NCBI GenBank assembly: GCA_965228735.1 | Contig: OZ245838.1 | Span: 5,824,001-5,888,000, forward strand | From: Planctomycetota bacterium | Lineage (GTDB): Bacteria > Planctomycetota > UBA1135 > UBA2386 | Length of the DNA: 64,000 bases | Reading direction: 5' to 3' | Shown here: positions 39,268 through 50,453 of the stretch, piece after piece | Layout: every line of letters begins with the position of its first letter | Numbering within the stretch: the stretch's first letter is position 1 | Notes under the pieces: generated by a model | Seen by the model: only the letters and a program-made list of their open reading frames with translations | What the model was told of the DNA's origin: nothing | Databases searched by the model: none | Position numbers and translations under genes: made by a program

Positions 39268-39885
39268 TCAGTCGGTCTTGCCGCGCTCGCGCTCGAGCTG
39301 CTCGAGCTTCATCGTGAGCGCGGCGCGCGCGCGTGACAGCAGCATGCGCGTCGCGGCCTCGGTGCGATCGATCTCGGCCGCGACCTCTTCGATCGGGCGT
39401 TGGGCGAACACGAGTTGCTCGATCACCTCGCGATGTTCTTCGCGGACCTCGTGCAGCGCGCGGTAGACGAGCTCGACGTCCTCGACCTTCTGCAGGTCGG
39501 AGAGCGGTGACGACACCGTGCGCAGATAGGCGATCGTCAGCGCGTTGAGCTCCGTCGTGCGGCTCGGTGGCTTGCGCTTCTTGGCCGTGAGGTGGCGGTG
39601 CTGTTGGCGCGCGGAGTTCTCGATGATCGTCGTGACCCAGGCCGAGAATTCGCGAATGGTGCTGCCCTGGAACTTGCCGATGCCGCGCACGACCTCGACG
39701 TAGGCGTCCTGCAGCACGTCCGACACGCGGGTGCGGCCACGCAGGGCGGTGCCGACGCGGCGTTCCGCATCCGCGCGGAACTGATGCTCGAGGCGGGTCA
39801 GAAGACGGTCGAGGGCCGCGCTGTCGCCGGCGCGCGCGGCGTCGAGATCGGCCGCGAATGCCTTGTCATCGTTCCAATCCGTCAT
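39268..39885 (-). CDS. ECF sigma-70 factor of the planctomycete kinase-associated type
   Basis: ARAGDSAALDRL, SDVLQDA, FQGSTIREFSAW and EEVAAEIDRTEAATRMLLSRAR motifs. Confidence 0.88.
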   Translation of the reverse strand: MTDWNDDKAFAADLDAARAGDSAALDRLLTRLEHQFRADAERRVGTALRGRTRVSDVLQDAYVEVVRGIGKFQGSTIREFSAWVTTIIENSARQQHRHLTAKKRKPPSRTTELNALTIAYLRTVSSPLSDLQKVEDVELVYRALHEVREEHREVIEQLVFAQRPIEEVAAEIDRTEAATRMLLSRARAALTMKLEQLERERGKTD

Positions 39886-40055
39886 GGCGCCACTCGGTTT
39901 TCGGAGCGTCGGTTTCGCCGTAAGTTACAACATGCGAAGGGGTTCGTGCCGGGCGGGCCCGCGCGTTGCCAGCAATCTCGGCAAATATGCGTTATCACCA
40001 TAGGGCGATCGCACCTTGTCGTCACTCGCCAATGACGGCCTGCCTACCCCGAAAC

Positions 40056-41189
40056 ATGAGCTACACCCGCAATCGGTTCGCCTCTCTCGCCGTTTTCCTG
40101 CTCCTCGCGCTCGGTGCCGCGAAGTCGCTGACTGCGCAGGTCCCGATCCTGTTCCCGGATCTGGCGATCAACCCGGTTGGGACCATCACCGGCACCGACG
40201 GCAAGGTGACGTTCAACCTCACGCAGCCGACGGGTTCGAAGCACGCCCTGCTCGTTTGCTACATCAACGTGACCGGCGAGGGGCAGTGGCCGGAGTTGAT
40301 TCGCGCCGCGATCCAGGCAGCCAATCACGCGAACATCGTGCAAGACGGCGGCGGGTCCTACACGGACTCCATCGCCGGCGTGGACGCGGATGCGCAAGCC
40401 GGCACCTATACCATACCGCCGAACATCATCGCGGAGGCCGTCGCGGAAGTGAACTGGGCCACCAACTCGATCCAGGATTGGGCCAAGCCGTTCAACGGAA
40501 CGATGGCGTGGCCGACGAACACCACGTCGACGACCCACTGGCCGACGAGCAACTGGCCGACCTCGTGCAGCACGATGCGATGGTCGACGCTCGGAACGGG
40601 GGTCAACTACGAGTTCGACGTCGGCGAGCTCATGGAGGCCTGCCTCGCTCGACAGATCGGCTACCACCTCGACAAGCCGATCACGCACCACGACGTCACG
40701 AGCCGCGTCGCGTCCGTGATGAAGCAGGCCAACGTGAAGTCGGCCGGCTTCGACCTCAATGCCATCGTCGTCGAGCTGCAGGATCCGCCCGGTGACACGC
40801 CGACGACGCCCGTCATCAAGCTGTCGCGCAGCCGCAAGATCAAGATCCAGGACCCCTCGCATGGCGGCGATCGCGACTTCTTCCACTTCGATCACATCTA
40901 TCCCATCACCGACTACTGCGAGCTGTTGCTCGACAGCGGCATGGGGTCGAACGTCCAGGTGCCGCAGGGTGACTACTGGCTCTACTATCCGGTGGACGGC
41001 GGCTACGAGACGATCCAGCTCGAGTTCACGGTGATCCAGGGCAACCACGCCTATCGCTGCCCGATCCTGCCGGCCGATGCGATCAGCGGTGAGATCATGG
41101 TCTACGACCACCTCAACCTGACGATCGCTCCGCTTGCTGGGCCGCAGGGCAAGTCCTGGATCTACGAGTACGAAGTGCTCAACAACTAG
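40056..41189 (+). CDS. Secreted hypothetical protein
   Basis: Signal peptide ending SLTA-Q; host-like codon usage; short WPT repeats. Confidence 0.75.
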   Translation: MSYTRNRFASLAVFLLLALGAAKSLTAQVPILFPDLAINPVGTITGTDGKVTFNLTQPTGSKHALLVCYINVTGEGQWPELIRAAIQAANHANIVQDGGGSYTDSIAGVDADAQAGTYTIPPNIIAEAVAEVNWATNSIQDWAKPFNGTMAWPTNTTSTTHWPTSNWPTSCSTMRWSTLGTGVNYEFDVGELMEACLARQIGYHLDKPITHHDVTSRVASVMKQANVKSAGFDLNAIVVELQDPPGDTPTTPVIKLSRSRKIKIQDPSHGGDRDFFHFDHIYPITDYCELLLDSGMGSNVQVPQGDYWLYYPVDGGYETIQLEFTVIQGNHAYRCPILPADAISGEIMVYDHLNLTIAPLAGPQGKSWIYEYEVLNN

Positions 41190-41201: not shown

Positions 41202-44051
41202 ATGACCAAGCGGCCGGAGACGGACGACGACATCGTCGAAGACATCCTCGGGCGCTGGTTCGACCTGCAGCTGGCCGGCGAAGCGCCGGACCTCGACGAG
41301 CTCTGTGCGGAAGCGCCGCACCTGCGTGAGCGGGTGCGGGGCCTGCTCGAGCGGCAGCAGGAGCTGATCGGTCCCGCGCCCGCGGAATCGCAAGAACGCG
41401 ATCGTCCGTCCGGTCGCCCTGCGGTCGGGCCGCTCCCCATGGACCGGCTCGGCGGCTTCGAGCTCAAGTCGCGCATCGGTTCGGGCGGCATGGGCGATGT
41501 CTACCTCGCGCGTGAGGTCGAGCTCGACCGCATCGTCGCCCTCAAGGTGTTGCGTCGCGAGTTCTGCGACGATCCGCTGCGGCGGCTCCGATTCCGCCGC
41601 GAAGCGCAGCTGACCGCGGCGCTCGACCACCCGGACATCGTGCCGATCTACGGCACGGGGGAGGACGCGGGACACGTCTTCCTCGTGATGAAGCACCTGC
41701 CGGGGACGACGCTCGATCGCGCGATCGGGCTCGCGCCGCGGCGTCTCGCGCGGATCGGTGCGCGCGTCGCGCACGCGCTGCACGCGGCCCACGAGGTCGG
41801 CATCGTGCACCGCGACGTCAAGCCGGGGAACGTCCAGGTCGATGGCCTCGACGCGGACGGCAGAAGCGACGACGTCTGGGTGCTCGACTTCGGCCTCGCG
41901 CGCGGGCGCGTTGATCTCACGCTGACGACCGAAGGGCAGGCACCGGGGACGATGGCCTACATGCCGCCCGAGCAGCTGCGCGGCGACAGCAGCGGCGTCG
42001 ACCCGCGCTGCGACATCTATTCGCTCGGCGCGACGCTCTACCAGTGCATCGCGGGACGGCCGCCGTTCGACGGCGACCGCCCGGAGCAGATCGTGCGTCG
42101 CGCGCTGCTGCACGAACCGGCGCCGCTCGAGCTCGCGCCCGTCGATCGCGACCTCGCGACGATCATCATGCGCGCGCTCGAGAAGGACCCGGGGCGGCGC
42201 TTCGCGTCCGCGGCCGAGTTCGCTGCGGACCTGGAGCGATACGTGGCCGGCGAGCCGATCCACTCGCGGCCACCGAGCACGTTGACGCGGTTCGTCAAAC
42301 TCGCGCGGCGGCATCGGGTCGTCGCGTCGGCGTTGGCCGCCGCGCTGCTGGTGGCTGTCGTCCTGGTCCCGCAGCTCGTTGCCAACGCGTGGCAGCGCGC
42401 GGCCGAGCTCGACCGGCGTTTCGAGTTCGTCGAGACGACGCTCGCCGGCGGGCTCCCGGCCGTGGCGTTCGGGAGATTGCTCGAGCTCGAGAGTTCCGCG
42501 GCCGCCGAGGACGCGCGGTTCGGAGCGCTGCAGTCAGAGGCCAGGGCGACGCTCGCGCGCGACGCGCTGCTCGATCGCATCCTGCTCGATGCAGTGCATT
42601 TCACGGTGCCGGCGGATGGCGAGTTCGTGGCGGCCATGGCCGATTTGCCGGACAACGTGCGCGGCCAGGAGCTCACGGCGGTCGCGTTGGCGTTTCTCGA
42701 GTACGGTCAGGGCAATCTCGGGAGGGCCACGGAAGAACTCGGCAGGCTCGCCGGCACGGGTGCGATGCCCCGTTTCGTCGCGGTATTCGAAGCGCTGCTG
42801 GGGGGGCGGGATCCGGTTGCTGCAATCGCGAACACCGACGTCGGCGCCATGCCCGTCGAGGACCACGTATTCGCCGCTGCCGTGTTGCGAAACGCGGACG
42901 CGTCGTCGGGAGCGATGGAGGCCGAGATCCGGGCTGCGTTCGAGCTCGACCCTGCATCGCCGCGAGCCCGGTTGATGGTGGCGGTGTGGCACATCGTGCA
43001 GGGCGAGGCTGCGCGGGCTCGCGAGACGCTGCTCATGCTCTGGGACGATCGGCGGCCGCGACCGGAGTTGCATTGCGAGATCGCGAGTCTCGCGCTCATC
43101 GACTACGAGACTCGATTGGCCGCCGAACAGATCGAGCGGGCCGAGTCTGCGCTGCTGGCCACGGGACGCCGGCCCGCCCAGAACGCCCCGTTGGCGCGCG
43201 TGCGGATCCGACTGCACACGAAGCGTGGTGAGTTCGATCAGGCGGTGGCCCTGCTCGCGGCAACACGCGAACGGCTCGGGGACGATGAGTGGCTACACGG
43301 TTGCGACGTCGAGATCGCGCTCGGTCAGGAGGATTGGGGCGCGGCACGGCAACGTGCACTGCGGATGGCCGCCGTGGCGAAGGCGCCGTGGAATCGACGC
43401 CGCGCCGAGGCCGTGCTGTTGCAGATCGCCGTGGCCACATGGGGGGAGGCCCCCGATGAGGAGTCGGGTCGGGCGCTCGTCGAGCGCGCCAGGGACCTCG
43501 CGGACTCCGCCGACAAGGCCGGCCACCGATGGGCGGGCGCCATTGCACAGCTCGCGATCTTCGACGTTGGCAAGAAGATGGCTGGCGAGTTGCTCGTGGC
43601 CGATCCCGCCGAGGCACTGCGCTGGGAACATGAGTACTGGCGGGCGTTGCTGGCCGCGTTCGAGTTCGACGACGGCAACGCCGGGGCGACGATCGAAGCC
43701 GGGATCTACCTGCTCGACCGGCTCGCCGACCGCGAGCGTGATCCGGCCGCGGAGTTGTGGCTCGGTGATACGGTACGGCAGGCACGGCAACGTGCCGTGA
43801 GGCTGTCCGAGAGCGCGTACCGGGGCGAGCGGACCATCGAGTTTGCGGATCACCTGCTGCTCGCGGTCCTGGGGGCCCGGTTGTCCGCCGAGGTCGAGGA
43901 CGACGCGGCGGCGAAACGAGCCGGTGCGATCGCCGCGGCGTTGCTCGGGCGGCCCGGGGTCGAAGTCGATCCGCAGATCACGTCGATCCTGGATCAGGCC
44001 CGCGAGAAGCTCGGGCTGACGAAGTGGCCGGCGCCGGCCGACCATCGGTGA
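41202..44051 (+). CDS. Ser/Thr protein kinase with TM segment and TPR-like C-terminal region
   Basis: GSGGMG, VALK, HRDVKPGN, DFG, GT.AYM.PEQ and DIYSLG motifs; TM VVASALAAALLVAVVLV. Confidence 0.93.
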   Translation: MTKRPETDDDIVEDILGRWFDLQLAGEAPDLDELCAEAPHLRERVRGLLERQQELIGPAPAESQERDRPSGRPAVGPLPMDRLGGFELKSRIGSGGMGDVYLAREVELDRIVALKVLRREFCDDPLRRLRFRREAQLTAALDHPDIVPIYGTGEDAGHVFLVMKHLPGTTLDRAIGLAPRRLARIGARVAHALHAAHEVGIVHRDVKPGNVQVDGLDADGRSDDVWVLDFGLARGRVDLTLTTEGQAPGTMAYMPPEQLRGDSSGVDPRCDIYSLGATLYQCIAGRPPFDGDRPEQIVRRALLHEPAPLELAPVDRDLATIIMRALEKDPGRRFASAAEFAADLERYVAGEPIHSRPPSTLTRFVKLARRHRVVASALAAALLVAVVLVPQLVANAWQRAAELDRRFEFVETTLAGGLPAVAFGRLLELESSAAAEDARFGALQSEARATLARDALLDRILLDAVHFTVPADGEFVAAMADLPDNVRGQELTAVALAFLEYGQGNLGRATEELGRLAGTGAMPRFVAVFEALLGGRDPVAAIANTDVGAMPVEDHVFAAAVLRNADASSGAMEAEIRAAFELDPASPRARLMVAVWHIVQGEAARARETLLMLWDDRRPRPELHCEIASLALIDYETRLAAEQIERAESALLATGRRPAQNAPLARVRIRLHTKRGEFDQAVALLAATRERLGDDEWLHGCDVEIALGQEDWGAARQRALRMAAVAKAPWNRRRAEAVLLQIAVATWGEAPDEESGRALVERARDLADSADKAGHRWAGAIAQLAIFDVGKKMAGELLVADPAEALRWEHEYWRALLAAFEFDDGNAGATIEAGIYLLDRLADRERDPAAELWLGDTVRQARQRAVRLSESAYRGERTIEFADHLLLAVLGARLSAEVEDDAAAKRAGAIAAALLGRPGVEVDPQITSILDQAREKLGLTKWPAPADHR

Positions 44052-45260: not shown

Positions 45261-46337
45261 ATGTCCGAGCCCGCCGCCCCCCGAATCGTCCGCTTCGTCC
45301 TCCTTGCCATCGCGCTCTGGTGCGCGCTGCAGCCGTTCCTGCCCGGTCAGACCTTGCCCGAGCGCTGGAACCGCGCGGCGGACTGGGGGCTGCAGGCGAC
45401 GCCCGGCAACCCGTGGGCGGACAGCCAGGGCAACGTGATGTGGTCGGCGCACCATCGCCGCGGCGGCATGTCGTTCGGTCAGTCGACGACCCTCGATCCC
45501 GCGTGGCAGGGCTGGGTCTCCGGCGGTGCCGCGATCTACTCCGGCGTCGCGCCGATCTACCAGAACGGCCTGGTGCACGAGTGCTACTACAATGTCCTCT
45601 GGGCGCGGCACCATCTGATCACGCCCGTCGTCGAGTTCCGGAACGTGACGGCGCAGGCCTTCGACCTCGCGATCGGTGGTCACCTCACGGTGTCGTGGAC
45701 CGGTCCGCAGGGGATCGCGCACGACACGCCGGTGACCGTGCAGCTGCAGCTCTACGACACCGGCACCGCGACGAACAGCTTCCTGGTCGACACGGTCGTC
45801 AACAAGCCGACGCCGGGCGGGACACCCGAGAGCCTCGCGTTCCCCGTCAACATCCCGGCGTTCACGTTCCACCCGCAGAGCCGGATCCTGATCACCGTGG
45901 TCGGCCAGAACTACAGCACGGGCACGAGCTGGATCATCCTGACCGACAAGAACCTCGACTACGTGCGGAGCGTCACCGCGACCGAGGTCGTGCGGCAGGC
46001 GACGCCGCCGAACCCGCTGACCCTGCTGCCCGGTGTGACGAGCCGCCCGCTGCTCGGGTCGACGTGGGATCCCGTGATCGGCAACGCGCCGAGCAACGGT
46101 ACCTTCGATCTGCTCGCGCTGGGCTTCGTGCCGCTGCATCAACCGACGCCGGTCGGCATCGCGCTGTGCGATCCGGTCGCGGTCGAGGTCGCGCTGTCGG
46201 GCACGCCGTTCGCCGTGGACTTCCCGCTGGAATACACGTTCCTCGGCCTGCCGCTGTGCACGCAGGGCGCGAGCCTGACGAGCGCGTCGACGATGTCGTT
46301 GAGCAACGCGCTCGATATCACGCTCGGCGATCTGTGA
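45261..46337 (+). CDS. Secreted beta-rich protein with an unnamed C-terminal domain
   Basis: Signal-like N-terminus; C-terminal RPLLG…NAP…LGLPLCTQG…LSNALDITLG. Confidence 0.75.
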   Translation: MSEPAAPRIVRFVLLAIALWCALQPFLPGQTLPERWNRAADWGLQATPGNPWADSQGNVMWSAHHRRGGMSFGQSTTLDPAWQGWVSGGAAIYSGVAPIYQNGLVHECYYNVLWARHHLITPVVEFRNVTAQAFDLAIGGHLTVSWTGPQGIAHDTPVTVQLQLYDTGTATNSFLVDTVVNKPTPGGTPESLAFPVNIPAFTFHPQSRILITVVGQNYSTGTSWIILTDKNLDYVRSVTATEVVRQATPPNPLTLLPGVTSRPLLGSTWDPVIGNAPSNGTFDLLALGFVPLHQPTPVGIALCDPVAVEVALSGTPFAVDFPLEYTFLGLPLCTQGASLTSASTMSLSNALDITLGDL

Positions 46338-47484
46338 CGCGGCGGCGGCGGCGGATCCTGTCGATCAGGCAGAGCAGGAAGCCGGCGCCGAGCACGCCGT
46401 AGAACCACTGCCACATCGAGAAGTTCCACGGCAGCGACAGCCGGGGTTCGCGAGCGTCCGCTGTGGCGAGCAGCGCCTGCAGGGCCGCGTCCGAGCGCAC
46501 GTCCTCGCCACGTGCGATCGCGGCGGCTTCGAGTTCCTGGAACGCGGCGAGCCAGCGGTCCGCGCTCGCGCGCTGCTCCGCGTAGAACGATTCGGAGGGC
46601 GGCACGTTGCCCTGGGAGACGTGAGTCTCCGCTTCGCGTTGGTGCGCCACGATGTTGGCGCAGGACTTGCGCAGGACATCGGACGCCGGGTGGCCGCGCT
46701 CGATCGCGTGGCGGAACGACCACCACGCCAGATGCAGGTGCTCCTTCATGAGGAACAGCTCGCCGAGTGTTCGATAGAGCTCCGGGCCCTCGATCCCGCC
46801 GAAGCGCAGCATGCCAGAGGCGGCCTCATAGGCCTCGTTCCAGTCGAGCTCGCGATCGTTCCGCCACGGACTGGTATCGAGACCCTGCTCCGCCACCACG
46901 AACCAGTAGATGCTCTTGCCAGGCCTCGGTTGGTAGTTCGCATGCCGCAGGAAACTCGTGCTCGACCACAGCGTCGGGTCTCTCTTCGCCGCCGCGATGT
47001 ACTCGATCAACTCGATCTGATACCGCTCGCGCCCGAAGTGCGCGTCCGGGTTGATCGCGACGGCGCGCCGCAGTTCGACGAGCCCCTCGTCGAACCTGCC
47101 GGCGTGGGCGAGGAACGTGCCGAGGTTGGCGTGATACCGATACCGGTGCTCGTCGTCGGGCGTGTTCGTGAGCGCTTTCTGCTTTCGCGCCATCACCGCG
47201 ATCGCGGCGTCACGATCGCCGAGGCGCTCGTGCGCGACGGCGAGGTCGTCGAGTTCGGCCAGCGTCAGCTCGCGTTCGCCGCCGAGCCGCTCGAGCCGTT
47301 CGCGGTAGTACGCGTCCGAGTGCCGGTGCCAGCGCCCGGTGACGAGGTCGAACGCCTCGGGCAGTCCGCGCAGCTCGGACTCGAGCGTGTCGCTGTCCCA
47401 GATGCACGGCAGCAAGGCGGCCGGCGCGAGCACCAAGGCGAACGCGAACGACCGCGCCCCTGACCCGACGGCGCCGCCGCTCAT
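46318..47484 (-). CDS. Exported TPR protein with a C-terminal TM anchor
   Basis: Signal then CIWDSDTL; TPR-like YRYHANLGTFL…AVAINPDAHFGRE; C-terminal hydrophobic helix plus Arg cluster; ATGA overlap with the upstream gene. Confidence 0.75.
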   Translation of the reverse strand: MSGGAVGSGARSFAFALVLAPAALLPCIWDSDTLESELRGLPEAFDLVTGRWHRHSDAYYRERLERLGGERELTLAELDDLAVAHERLGDRDAAIAVMARKQKALTNTPDDEHRYRYHANLGTFLAHAGRFDEGLVELRRAVAINPDAHFGRERYQIELIEYIAAAKRDPTLWSSTSFLRHANYQPRPGKSIYWFVVAEQGLDTSPWRNDRELDWNEAYEAASGMLRFGGIEGPELYRTLGELFLMKEHLHLAWWSFRHAIERGHPASDVLRKSCANIVAHQREAETHVSQGNVPPSESFYAEQRASADRWLAAFQELEAAAIARGEDVRSDAALQALLATADAREPRLSLPWNFSMWQWFYGVLGAGFLLCLIDRIRRRRRVTDRRA

Positions 47485-48629
47485 CGGGCGTAGAGCCACA
47501 CGAAGCCGTGCGTCTTGATCTTCTGCCCGGAGGTCTGCCACGTGACGTCACCGACGAGCAGGTCGGGCCGGCGGTTGCCGTTCCAGTCGCAGACGTGGAC
47601 CTTGACGCGTTGGCCGCACGGCTTCTCCGGGCGCGTGCCATCAGCGGCGCGCTTGCCGTATGCCGGCTGCGCCACGAGCAGCCCGGCCTCGGCGTAGCGC
47701 GGCCGACCGCCCTTGCGCCCGACGTTGCGATACCAGTGTACCGCGCCGTGTTCGCTGCCGACGACGAGGTCGATGCGGCCGTCGCCGTTCCAGTCGGCGT
47801 GGTGCGCGTTGCTGCCCTCGATGACCGTGCCCTTCTCGGTCTTCAGCGGCTGGAACTCGGTGGACCACTGCGGCTCGCTGCGCGTCCCGACGTTCTCGAT
47901 CACGAGCACGGGATCGCTGCGCGCGCCGACGACGAGGTCGAGGTCGTCGTCCTCGTCCATGTCGACGAGCTCGGGCACGACCGAGTACTCGGGCAGGATG
48001 ATCGCCTTGCCGTCGACGTTCTGCAGGTGCTCACGCTTGCCGAAACGCGGGAGGCCGGTGCTCGCCGACGTGGCGGCCGCGGCCGTCGTCGTCGAAGCGT
48101 CCGCGGGACCATTGGCGGCGAGACCGCGGAACAGATACAGCTGCCCCGTGTACGACCCCGTGACGATGTCGAGGATGCCGTCGTGGTCGTAGTCCACGAA
48201 CTGTGGACAGAACGAGAGGCATCAAGTGATCGGGACGGCGGCGTCCTCGCCGTTCGCCTGCAGGTAGGAGAAGCTCGCGAACTTCGGCCTCTTCGCGGAG
48301 CCGACGTTGCGGTAGATCCGCACCTTGCCGTTGGCGAAGCGGCCGGCCTTCTTCCAGCCTTCCGCGAGCTCGTCGGGCAGCTCGGCGTTGTCGAACTTGC
48401 CCGTGCCGAACTCGCCGACGAGCAGGTCGCGCAGGCCGTCGCCGTCGAAGTCGAAGAAGTACGGCGCGGCGTGGCCCGTCGTCACGTCGATCGGTTCGCC
48501 GGCGGCCTCGAGCAGGACCGGATTGCTGAGTTCGGGGCGCTGGCTCCCGCGTTGAGCCGGGGCTGGACTCATCAGGAGCGAGAGGACGAGCGCGCCGGCG
48601 CTCGCGGTAGCAACAGCAGGTCGTGCCAT
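47481..48629 (-). CDS. Secreted FG-GAP repeat protein with an in-frame UGA at codon 136, candidate selenoprotein (382 aa if read through)
   Basis: ORFs 48222-48629 and 47481-48197 share a frame; junction reads VPIT*CLSFCPQFVDYDHDGILDIVTG; five FG-GAP-like blades span the UGA. Confidence 0.75.
48187..48215 (-). promoter_or_regulatory. Candidate bacterial SECIS element
   Basis: mRNA UGA-UGCCUC-UCGU-UCU-GUCCAC-AGUUC-GUGGAC-U-ACGA: 6-bp upper stem, 5-nt loop with G at position 2, loop 19 nt from the UGA. Confidence 0.6.
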
Positions 48630-48821
48630 CGAGGTCTCCGAGGGGTCGGGTCGCCGAGCGTGGGGGCAGCCGGGTGACCCGGAGAGCCCGGGTTTCGGCC
48701 GCCGTGAGCGACCGGCGCAGTGTAGCGCGGCGGGCGGGGCGCGGGGGCTCGACGGCCCGATGCTCGAAGCCGGCACCTCAGAGCCGTAGGATTCGGAGCC
48801 CTGATCAGGAGTCCACTACCA

Positions 48822-50453
48822 GTGTCCAACGCCAGCTTCGAAGTCCCCGTCCCGCAGAACGAACCGATCACGCCGTACGCGCCCGGCACGGCCCCGCGCG
48901 TCGCCCTCGAGGCGGAGCTCGAACGCATGGCCGGCGAGGTGACGGACATCCCGATGATCATCGGCGGCAAGGAGATCGCGACGGGCGACACGCACGACGT
49001 CGTGATGCCGCACGATCACGGCCACGTGCTCGGCAAGTGTCACCACGGCAGCTCGGATGCGGTCGATCAGGCGGCCAAGGCCTGCAAGGCGGCCGAACGC
49101 GAGTGGCAGAACACGCCGTGGGAGCACCGCGCGACCGTGTTCCTCAAGGCCGCCGACCTGCTCGCCGGCCCGTGGCGCGATCGCATCAACGCGTCGACGA
49201 TGCTGGGCCAGAGCAAGAACGCGTTCCAGTCGGAGATCGACGCGGCGTGCGAGCTCATCGACTTCTGGCGCTTCAACGTGCACTACATGCGCGAGATCTA
49301 CAGCGAGCAGCCGCAGAGCGCGCCGGGCATGTGGAACCGCCTCGAACAGCGCGGCCTCGAGGGCTTCGTGTTCGCGATCACGCCGTTCAACTTCAGCTCG
49401 ATCGCGGGCAACCTGCCGACCTCCGCCGCGCTGATGGGCACGACGTCGATCTGGAAGCCGTCGTCGACCGCGGCGCTGTCGGGCTACTGGCTCATGAAGC
49501 TGCTCGAAGAGGCCGGGCTGCCGCCGGGCGTCGTCAACTTCGTGCCGGGTCGCGGCCCGGACATCGGCACGCCGGCGCTCGCGCACCCCGATCTCGCGGG
49601 GGTGCACTTCACGGGTTCGACGGGCACGTTCCAGACGATCTGGGAGTCGGTCGGCAAGAACATCCGCAACTACAAGTGCTACCCGCGCATCGTGGGCGAG
49701 ACGGGCGGCAAGGACTTCGTGTTCGCCCATCCGTCGGCGCACGTGCCGGCGCTCGTGACCGCGCTCGTGCGCGGCGCGTTCGAGTACCAGGGCCAGAAGT
49801 GCTCGGCCGCGAGCCGCGCCTACATCCCGAAGTCGATCTGGGGTGACGTCAAGGATCGCCTCGTCGCCGAGGTCGCGCAGATCAAGATGGGCGACGTCCG
49901 CGACTTCTCCAACTTCATGAACGCGGTCATCGACGAGCGCGCGTTCGACAAGATCGGCAGCTACATCGACGAGGCCAAGAACGCGAGCGATGCCGAGGTC
50001 ATCGCGGGCGGCGAGTTCGACAAGAGCAGCGGCTACTTCATCCAGCCGACCGTCGTGGAGACGACCAATCCGAACTTCAAGACGATGGTCGAGGAGATCT
50101 TCGGCCCGGTGCTCACCATCTACGTCTACGACGACGACAAGCTCGACGAGACGTTGACGCTGTGCGACACCGCGTCGCCGTACGCGCTGACCGGCGCGAT
50201 CTTCTCGCAGGATCGCTACGCGGCCGTGAAGATGAGCAAGGCGCTCGAGCACACGGCCGGCAACTTCTACTTCAACGACAAGCCGACGGGCGCGGTCGTC
50301 GGCCAGCAGCCGTTCGGCGGCGGACGCGCGTCCGGCACCAACGACAAGGCCGGCAGCAAGCTCAACCTGCTGCGCTGGTGCTCGGCGCGCACGATCAAGG
50401 AGACGTTCGTGCCGCCGACCGACTGGCGCTACCCGTTCATGGGGAACGCGTAG
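48822..50453 (+). CDS. pruA: L-glutamate gamma-semialdehyde (P5C) dehydrogenase
   Basis: EIDAACELIDFWRFN, ITPFNF, FTGS, GETGGKDF, FEYQGQKCSA, EEIFGP and GGRASGTNDKAGS motifs; AGGAG RBS. Confidence 0.95.
   Translation: MSNASFEVPVPQNEPITPYAPGTAPRVALEAELERMAGEVTDIPMIIGGKEIATGDTHDVVMPHDHGHVLGKCHHGSSDAVDQAAKACKAAEREWQNTPWEHRATVFLKAADLLAGPWRDRINASTMLGQSKNAFQSEIDAACELIDFWRFNVHYMREIYSEQPQSAPGMWNRLEQRGLEGFVFAITPFNFSSIAGNLPTSAALMGTTSIWKPSSTAALSGYWLMKLLEEAGLPPGVVNFVPGRGPDIGTPALAHPDLAGVHFTGSTGTFQTIWESVGKNIRNYKCYPRIVGETGGKDFVFAHPSAHVPALVTALVRGAFEYQGQKCSAASRAYIPKSIWGDVKDRLVAEVAQIKMGDVRDFSNFMNAVIDERAFDKIGSYIDEAKNASDAEVIAGGEFDKSSGYFIQPTVVETTNPNFKTMVEEIFGPVLTIYVYDDDKLDETLTLCDTASPYALTGAIFSQDRYAAVKMSKALEHTAGNFYFNDKPTGAVVGQQPFGGGRASGTNDKAGSKLNLLRWCSARTIKETFVPPTDWRYPFMGNA

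Follow-up and report, generated by a model that had tools for sequence, protein, structure and literature searches.

An FG-GAP repeat protein of Planctomycetota as a likely member of an uncatalogued selenoprotein family

The propellers of integrin alpha heads and PVL-type lectins have seven blades, the Tc toxin B subunit is a large multidomain protein with SpvB and a repeat shell, and the N-terminal domain of DsbD (nDsbD) is a periplasmic electron hub. Most bacterial selenoproteins in the available part of the catalogue PMC13188914 are thioredoxin-fold or metal-cofactor enzymes. The hairpin that directs insertion of selenocysteine (Sec) in bacteria, the bSECIS element, is described as having a loop of 3-9 nucleotides (nt), an upper stem of 4-16 base pairs (bp), a G in the first two loop positions, a distance of 16-37 nt from the UGA and a minimum free energy of -7.5 or lower (PMC13188914). 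Two systems useful for comparison are DsbI of Epsilonproteobacteria, which the accessible text of PMC4460558 describes as a protein of the DsbB type that carries a periplasmic beta-propeller, the role of which is unknown, and mammalian thioredoxin reductase, the adjacent C-terminal Cys-Sec pair of which cycles via a selenenylsulfide (PMC10298544, available sections). Here we analyze a gene for an FG-GAP repeat protein with an in-frame TGA in DNA of a Planctomycetota bacterium (assembly GCA_965228735.1, contig OZ245838.1, positions 5,824,001-5,888,000); this whole stretch of 64,000 nt is called the window.

The gene occupies 47481-48629 of the minus strand and forms a single frame of 382 residues, of which the sole internal stop is the TGA at 48224-48222 (codon 136). 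The residue context is AVPIT*CLSFCPQFVD, with Cys137 and Cys141 downstream of the TGA. An earlier note, made from the DNA letters only, had joined two apparently separate open reading frames (ORFs) into one frame broken solely by this TGA, and translation gave the same result. Judged from sequence comparison, the UGA is almost certainly decoded as Sec by the host SelB and tRNA-Sec acting on the adjoining hairpin.

The homologues carry much of this argument. Among the best 120 of 1849 protein matches, the 67 proteins that span the site all have Cys at the position of codon 136, and the remaining 53 start exactly at a GTG that is the nominal start of the downstream ORF. As the earlier note had proposed, this GTG (48197) lies within blade 2; it also lies within the hairpin stem. 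Both halves are mis-annotated in protein databases because gene callers systematically mis-split the family, which is the fate that the note had foreseen for this gene in standard pipelines. The note had also named Trp, Gly or Arg in homologues as a result that would speak against Sec, and only Cys or a conserved TGA was found. In an alignment of 132 sequences, among them 37 Sec forms, 67 close Cys forms and 28 distant Cys forms, 131 have Sec or Cys at position 136. True Cys codons (TGT or TGC) were seen in the DNA of four related loci (L032, L051, L067 and L070). Sec and Cys forms are interleaved in a tree of 99 sequences, from which every second close Cys form was left out, with at least 10 changes between them; because the root is a midpoint, no direction of change is claimed.

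The codon itself is conserved in relatives. Six of nine loci from named genomes are family members, and all six have TGA at codon 136; they belong to five Planctomycetota or unclassified metagenome-assembled genomes and one Fimbriimonadaceae, with selA present in 5/5 tested. TGA occupies the same codon in 28/29 phylum loci inspected. In a sample of 401 genomes of the phylum, 83 had a match and 73 had a match bearing one TGA; the site was inspected in 31 of these 73 genomes and the codon was identical in each. The selA gene was found in 72/73 of the TGA-bearing genomes vs 218/328 of the others, where related genomes do not count as independent. The ten matching genomes without such a TGA comprise two with a Cys-Cys form (G344 and G375), four with distant FG-GAP proteins lacking the site and four with partial matches. 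In G344, no selA, selB or tRNA-Sec was found. The host has two paralogues of the gene (G000:C1:406817, minus strand, and C1:3065085, plus strand; L018 and L020), both TGA-Cys with the same hairpin core.

These data bear directly on the simplest alternative, that the TGA is a true stop, whether the gene is a pseudogene, the letters contain a sequencing error or the two halves are genes translated separately. Such a stop would agree with the 53/120 database matches in which the downstream half is a separate protein, and a hairpin alone is weak evidence in a GC-rich genome. We nevertheless consider a true stop very improbable, since many families and two paralogues have TGA at this codon and keep the two halves in frame, TGA alternates with Cys only, the break would cut the propeller inside blade 2, and the hairpin is kept in TGA forms only. 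The contigs of three studies, one each across the whole gene, agree letter for letter, although they may be the source of this DNA; a fourth run did not extend over the site. Related loci keep both gene halves in one frame. Neither the sequencing error nor the independent halves considered in the earlier note were encountered.

The host contains selA, selB, selD and tRNA-Sec, all above curated cut-offs, which is the machinery that the note had singled out for a search. Its selD itself has an in-frame TGA at the motif SGSG*AAK. In a host-wide scan, about 30 of 152 TGA sites with high coding potential resembled selenoproteins when read by eye, and in-frame TGAs of the host coincide with the catalytic Cys of thioredoxin-like proteins, peroxiredoxins and SelD. 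A changed genetic code, in which UGA would be read as Trp, Gly or Cys rather than Sec, is barely conceivable in view of these catalytic sites and the complete Sec machinery, and TGA is the normal terminator of this gene and many other host genes. The host seems unusually rich in exported selenoproteins. The frames recognized by eye were TlpA-like proteins with WUGPC (several times), peroxiredoxins, deiodinase-like proteins, MsrA, glutaredoxin, rhodanese, AhpD, HMA-like proteins and three with GHPLGCTU. Another host locus (L144:272-2227, plus strand; G000:C1:5150736) encodes a probably exported protein of 652 residues that has a DsbD_N domain at its C terminus and a U-M-C motif, the U of which corresponds to an in-frame TGA; it had no NCBIfam match and is possibly another uncatalogued selenoprotein tied to DsbD_N.

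Some observations on the genomes count against Sec decoding. The 73rd TGA-bearing genome (G063; 90% complete, 410 contigs) yielded selB, but neither selA nor tRNA-Sec was found. A Cys form is present in G375, a genome with Sec machinery. Furthermore, selA is common in the phylum (290/401 genomes). On the distribution of the machinery we also observed two selB-like matches above cut-off on a single contig (G063:C294), and selA in only 1/20 genomes of family f7 in the phylum sample.

The features of the gene and its surroundings in the window are as follows; the basis of each is given in parentheses, and pLDDT is the predicted local distance difference test score.

47481..48629, minus strand: full gene, 382 codons plus stop, for a five-repeat FG-GAP protein with putative Sec136 (frame, Pfam, predicted model)
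48636..48639, minus strand: GGAG resembling a ribosome-binding site, 6 nt before the ATG (sequence)
48555..48629, minus strand: likely signal peptide, residues 1-25, with hydrophobic core 5-24 and A-P-A before the presumed cleavage site (sequence; low pLDDT)
48222..48224, minus strand: in-frame TGA, codon 136, putative Sec (frame, homologues, related loci)
48219..48221, minus strand: Cys137, vicinal partner (37/37 Sec forms, 66/67 close Cys forms)
48187..48215, minus strand: bSECIS-type hairpin, upper stem 48208-48203 with 48197-48192, variable lower stem (fold, covariation, published bSECIS model)
48202-48198, minus strand: hairpin loop AGUUC, starting 19 nt after the UGA, with G at loop position 2 (fold)
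48195..48197, minus strand: GTG taken by gene callers as the false start of the downstream half, in the SECIS stem (53/120 database matches begin here)
48045..48107, minus strand: Ala/Thr/Ser-rich insert, residues 175-195 (not in other aligned family members; lower model confidence)
46318..47484, minus strand: next gene, TPR-like, the start of which overlaps the stop of the putative selenoprotein gene (ATGA) (sequence, Pfam search)

The hairpin immediately 3' of the UGA folds as the earlier note had drawn it, UCGU...GUCCAC-AGUUC-GUGGAC-U-ACGA, with -12.2 kcal/mol for the 42 nt after the UGA. Its loop (5 nt), upper stem (6 bp), G (position 2), distance (19 nt) and energy all lie within the four bSECIS criteria of PMC13188914. 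Compared with chance the stability is modest, with z-scores of -1.7 (42 nt), -2.5 (50 nt), -0.8 (80 nt) and -1.7 (116 nt), and a loose hairpin rule was passed by 1650 of 6077 filtered host TGA sites. Because this genome-wide rule does not discriminate, the hairpin was not used as stand-alone evidence; its weight is carried by conservation and covariation.

The covariation that the note had suggested looking for is present. The stem has six pairs; across 32 distinct TGA sites, 96.4% of its 192 cells are paired and 11 cells have changed on both sides. The compensatory changes are mainly from A-U to G-C, i.e., from Pro CCA/Val GTG to Pro CCG/Ala GCG. None of 500 shuffles gave pairing as high, a test that is inflated by kinship, and slid registers gave 29-42%. 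Loci L008-L142 contain 54 distinct sites with TGA in register, and 50 of these have at least 5/6 pairs together with a G in the first two loop positions. By comparison, the four true Cys sites have 2-4 pairs and the hairpin is kept in none of them. Of the 36 other rows from these loci, four are shifted Sec sites and the rest, representing other blades or more distant FG-GAP proteins, were left out. In five loci (L076, L077, L092, L096 and L099) the TGA is one codon earlier and the hairpin is kept; L099 was counted as such a shifted site, which leaves the true Cys sites at four. The note had pointed to TGT and CCA in the stem as atypical codons, and they indeed make up only 14.2% of Cys and 4.4% of Pro codons in long host ORFs, while the stem Pro codon is CCA in 38/54 Sec sites. 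Selection acts on this hairpin.

The ATG at 48629 is preceded by GGAG at 6 nt. The hydrophobic residues 5-24 agree with the signal peptide that the note had placed in the upstream part, and export of the protein is probable. Five FG-GAP motifs of the type Dx[DN]x[DN] start at residues 60, 146, 223, 279 and 348, and the Pfam families FG-GAP_3 and FG-GAP (PF13517 and PF01839) match above cut-off with 74.9 and 36.6 bits. Ca2+ binding by the DxDxDG loops would be expected. An AlphaFold2 model built from 64 sequences (pLDDT 89.7; predicted template modeling score, pTM, 0.87) predicts a five-bladed propeller, in which the TGA break falls inside blade 2. The best VIA-align matches are five-bladed glycoside hydrolases (GH) of families GH62, GH159 and GH43 (Z 17-13, root-mean-square deviation (rmsd) about 4 A, 4-13% identity, about 255 aligned residues). 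With Foldseek, no template modeling (TM) score to an integrin, lectin, CRTAC1 or Tc subunit exceeded 0.42. The PDB sequence search gave weak integrin matches only, including integrin alpha-IIb, and matches in the ESM Atlas were limited to FG-GAP clusters with generic names.

The pair U136-C137 lies in a loop between strands 132-134 and 143-145, in the register of the 'FG' of the repeat. From this register, rather than from coordinates, the loop would precede the first strand of blade 2 and be on the face round the central pocket. The family motif is Sec-Cys (U-C). Cys137 is present in 37/37 Sec forms, 66/67 close Cys forms and 19/28 distant Cys forms, and Cys141 is variable, with 11/37 Sec forms and 10/67 close Cys forms having it. 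Thus, of the U-C-x3-C site proposed in the earlier note, the U-C part stands and Cys141 does not belong to the conserved motif. Other well kept residues in the 132-sequence alignment are His53, Ser159, Tyr160 and Arg341, and the acids E73 and E293 vary.

The fold matches raise the possibility of a real selenoprotein without redox function, in which Sec136 would be a nucleophile or ligand for polymers of algae or of the envelope, in a pocket resembling those of FG-GAP lectins or five-bladed glycoside hydrolases. The best matches are indeed GH62, GH159 and GH43 (Z 14-17), FG-GAP lectins are among the Foldseek matches, and the probable export and the variety of fusion partners would fit. We regard such a function as quite unlikely, since the identities are 4-13% and the rmsd is about 4 A, no GH family was matched in Pfam, the acids outside the Ca-loops (E73 and E293) vary across the family, and the invariant Cys pair of the DsbD_N domain that is fused to relatives would be left unexplained.

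The most likely function is thiol redox chemistry in the cell envelope, as part of the DsbD pathway; on the basis of sequence comparison we favor it with moderate confidence, because relatives are fused to DsbD_N with its invariant Cys pair and one also to a Sec-peroxiredoxin. The C-terminal QxCx(3-6)C pair, in a domain that Pfam names DsbD_N (PF11412), is present in 48/67 close Cys forms and 5/36 Sec loci, and it is invariant in the 53 rows aligned for DsbD_N. Locus L009 (3881-6205, plus strand) joins a Sec-propeller to DsbD_N and to a BCP-type peroxiredoxin, in which another in-frame TGA (TPG*T) takes the place of the catalytic Cys; it is probably a double selenoprotein. These DsbD_N and peroxiredoxin fusions strengthen the redox reading that the note had offered. 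In L051, a DsbD_N gene follows the Cys form. The DsbD of the host (L143:183-2732, minus strand; G000:C1:4263499) contains two DsbD_N-like domains, and the UxxC motif of its C-terminal thioredoxin carries an in-frame TGA; a DsbD selenoprotein with this layout is unnamed in the available part of the PMC13188914 table. A search of longer proteins gave 9 matches with one clear family member and no new redox fusion. Other partners occur in P0225, P0242 and P0255, where Cys-form propellers are fused to a BlaR1/WD40 protein, a kinase/FGE-sulfatase protein and a stretch resembling an outer-membrane efflux protein, respectively.

In the mechanism that we propose, the selenolate of Sec136 would reduce an oxidized envelope substrate (a disulfide, sulfenic acid or peroxide). 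The oxidized Sec136 could then close a vicinal selenenylsulfide with Cys137, which would be re-reduced by the DsbD N-terminal domain, in cis in the fused relatives and in trans in the host.

Several findings weigh against this role or limit it. The protein in the window has no DsbD_N domain, and only 5/36 Sec loci have one. The 77 flanking ORFs from 49 loci reveal no conserved neighborhood, thiol-redox genes being sporadic. In the model of a fused relative the domains are separated by a disordered linker and the pTM is 0.70, vs 0.87 for the propeller alone, and because of this linker and the drop in pTM no fixed docking of propeller and DsbD_N is indicated. One host paralogue (G000:C1:406817) is fused behind an S-adenosylmethionine (SAM)-methyltransferase domain, which does not point to redox chemistry. 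Moreover, 9/28 distant Cys forms lack Cys137, and at four of the shifted sites (L076, L077, L092 and L096) the TGA is followed by Gly or Ala instead of the adjacent Cys. Because the second Cys is missing in some members, the vicinal cycle cannot hold for all of them.

The same pair of a real selenoprotein might instead serve in metal binding: with Cu, Hg, Ag or As as the bound soft metal or metalloid, the protein would be an envelope scavenger or carrier in which DsbD_N merely keeps the ligands reduced. Adjacent Cys/Sec motifs are found in the SaoL, HgcA, MbdU and CopZ-like selenoproteins in the available part of Table 1 of PMC13188914, the conserved His53 and Arg341 could complete a site, and the DsbD_N fusion is also compatible with metal binding. 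We think this function unlikely, as the 77 flanking ORFs include no recurring metal-resistance or transport neighbor, members with a single Sec exist, and the peroxiredoxin fusion suggests thiol redox. Extending the preferred thiol-redox reading, we tentatively propose that a Ca2+-type five-bladed FG-GAP propeller with a Sec-Cys center at its pocket could be a new selenoenzyme scaffold. It might be the last member of an electron chain in the envelope that is built largely on selenium (Sec-DsbD, Sec-TlpA, Sec-peroxiredoxin and Sec-propeller) in nearly a fifth of the sampled phylum genomes, and reduce substrates beyond the reach of thioredoxin folds.

Downstream, the TPR-like gene at 46318-47484 (minus strand) has hydrophobic ends and is probably co-translated with the propeller gene. 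It has no paralogue in the host, and it was rejected as a fixed partner since tblastn gave no match in the related loci L008-L063. Within 46000-49000 of the window, neither promoter-like sites nor terminators above chance were found. Further away are what we take, from their translations, to be an ECF-sigma-like gene (39268-39885, minus strand), an exported-looking, unannotated ORF (39966-41189, plus strand) and a Ser/Thr kinase gene (41202-44051, plus strand).

To place the family among known selenoproteins, we searched for its terms in existing surveys. The 119-family Table 1 of PMC13188914, in its available part, has no FG-GAP, VCBS or propeller entry, and none of these terms is in the main text of PMC13188914, PMC13326102 or PMC12013277. 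The words 'propeller' and 'repeat' are not in PMC2398784 and PMC9312934, and NCBIfam of June 2026 has no selenoprotein model for the propeller family. Literature searches on selenoproteins with FG-GAP, VCBS, propeller or Planctomycetes found no report of the family, with the papers on Planctomycetes judged by title and abstract; BSepDB Table S2, the deep-Sep supplements and U-bearing RefSeq records could hold it. An NHL-repeat selenoprotein from marine surveys was considered as a precedent and dropped, the term being absent from PMC2398784, PMC9312934 and PMC13188914.

The results point to a probable and widespread selenoprotein family that the catalogues examined do not contain, with a scaffold on which Sec would be new and a redox role in the envelope as the likely function. 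Sec would be located on a predicted five-bladed propeller, with TGA-bearing matches in 73/401 sampled phylum genomes, and it would mark the functional residue in a large family known just as 'FG-GAP repeat protein'. The many natural Cys forms make the family testable without Sec expression, and the DsbD_N fusions link it to envelope redox biology in an apparently selenoprotein-rich host.

Like other FG-GAP proteins (integrin alpha heads, PVL-type lectins and CRTAC1), the protein has DxDxDG repeats above Pfam cut-offs and a weak match to integrin alpha-IIb. It differs from them by its five repeats, the five-bladed best fold match and the conserved Sec/Cys-Cys site, and Foldseek TM scores of its model to integrins, lectins and CRTAC1 are only 0.2-0.42. 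With five motifs and five-bladed best matches, it does not belong to the seven-bladed integrin-alpha/PVL-lectin class. The CRTAC1/ASPIC-UnbV class does not apply either, with no UnbV_ASPIC Pfam match in the protein or 30 relatives, nor does the Tc toxin B subunit (TcdB_toxin_midN, PF12256), to which a protein of 382 residues has a 27-bit match through repeats only and a TM of about 0.3 on the query. With the five-bladed GH62, GH43, GH32 and GH159 enzymes the predicted structure agrees in its overall fold (Z up to 17 over about 255 aligned residues), but at 4-13% identity, with no Pfam match and no invariant acid outside the Ca-loops.

The DsbD and DsbI systems are similar in that relatives of the protein carry DsbD_N with its Cys pair and that in DsbI, too, a propeller is linked to a Dsb component. 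In contrast to both, the putative redox residue is on the FG-GAP propeller itself and a DsbB/DsbD membrane domain is lacking, the separation from DsbI following its description. With mammalian thioredoxin reductase (PMC10298544, available sections) the family would share an adjacent Sec/Cys pair able to form a selenenylsulfide, but in the propeller the order is reversed (U-C), the pair is in an internal loop, and there is neither a flavin domain nor homology. The closest agreement is with bacterial selenoprotein genes of the SelB/bSECIS type, with which the family shares an in-frame UGA, a hairpin inside the ORF, Cys homologues and host Sec machinery; the motifs listed in the available part of Table 1 of PMC13188914 include C-U pairs and none is U-C. 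The family thus has every testable feature of a bacterial selenoprotein gene, and we found no catalogued family of which it would be a member.

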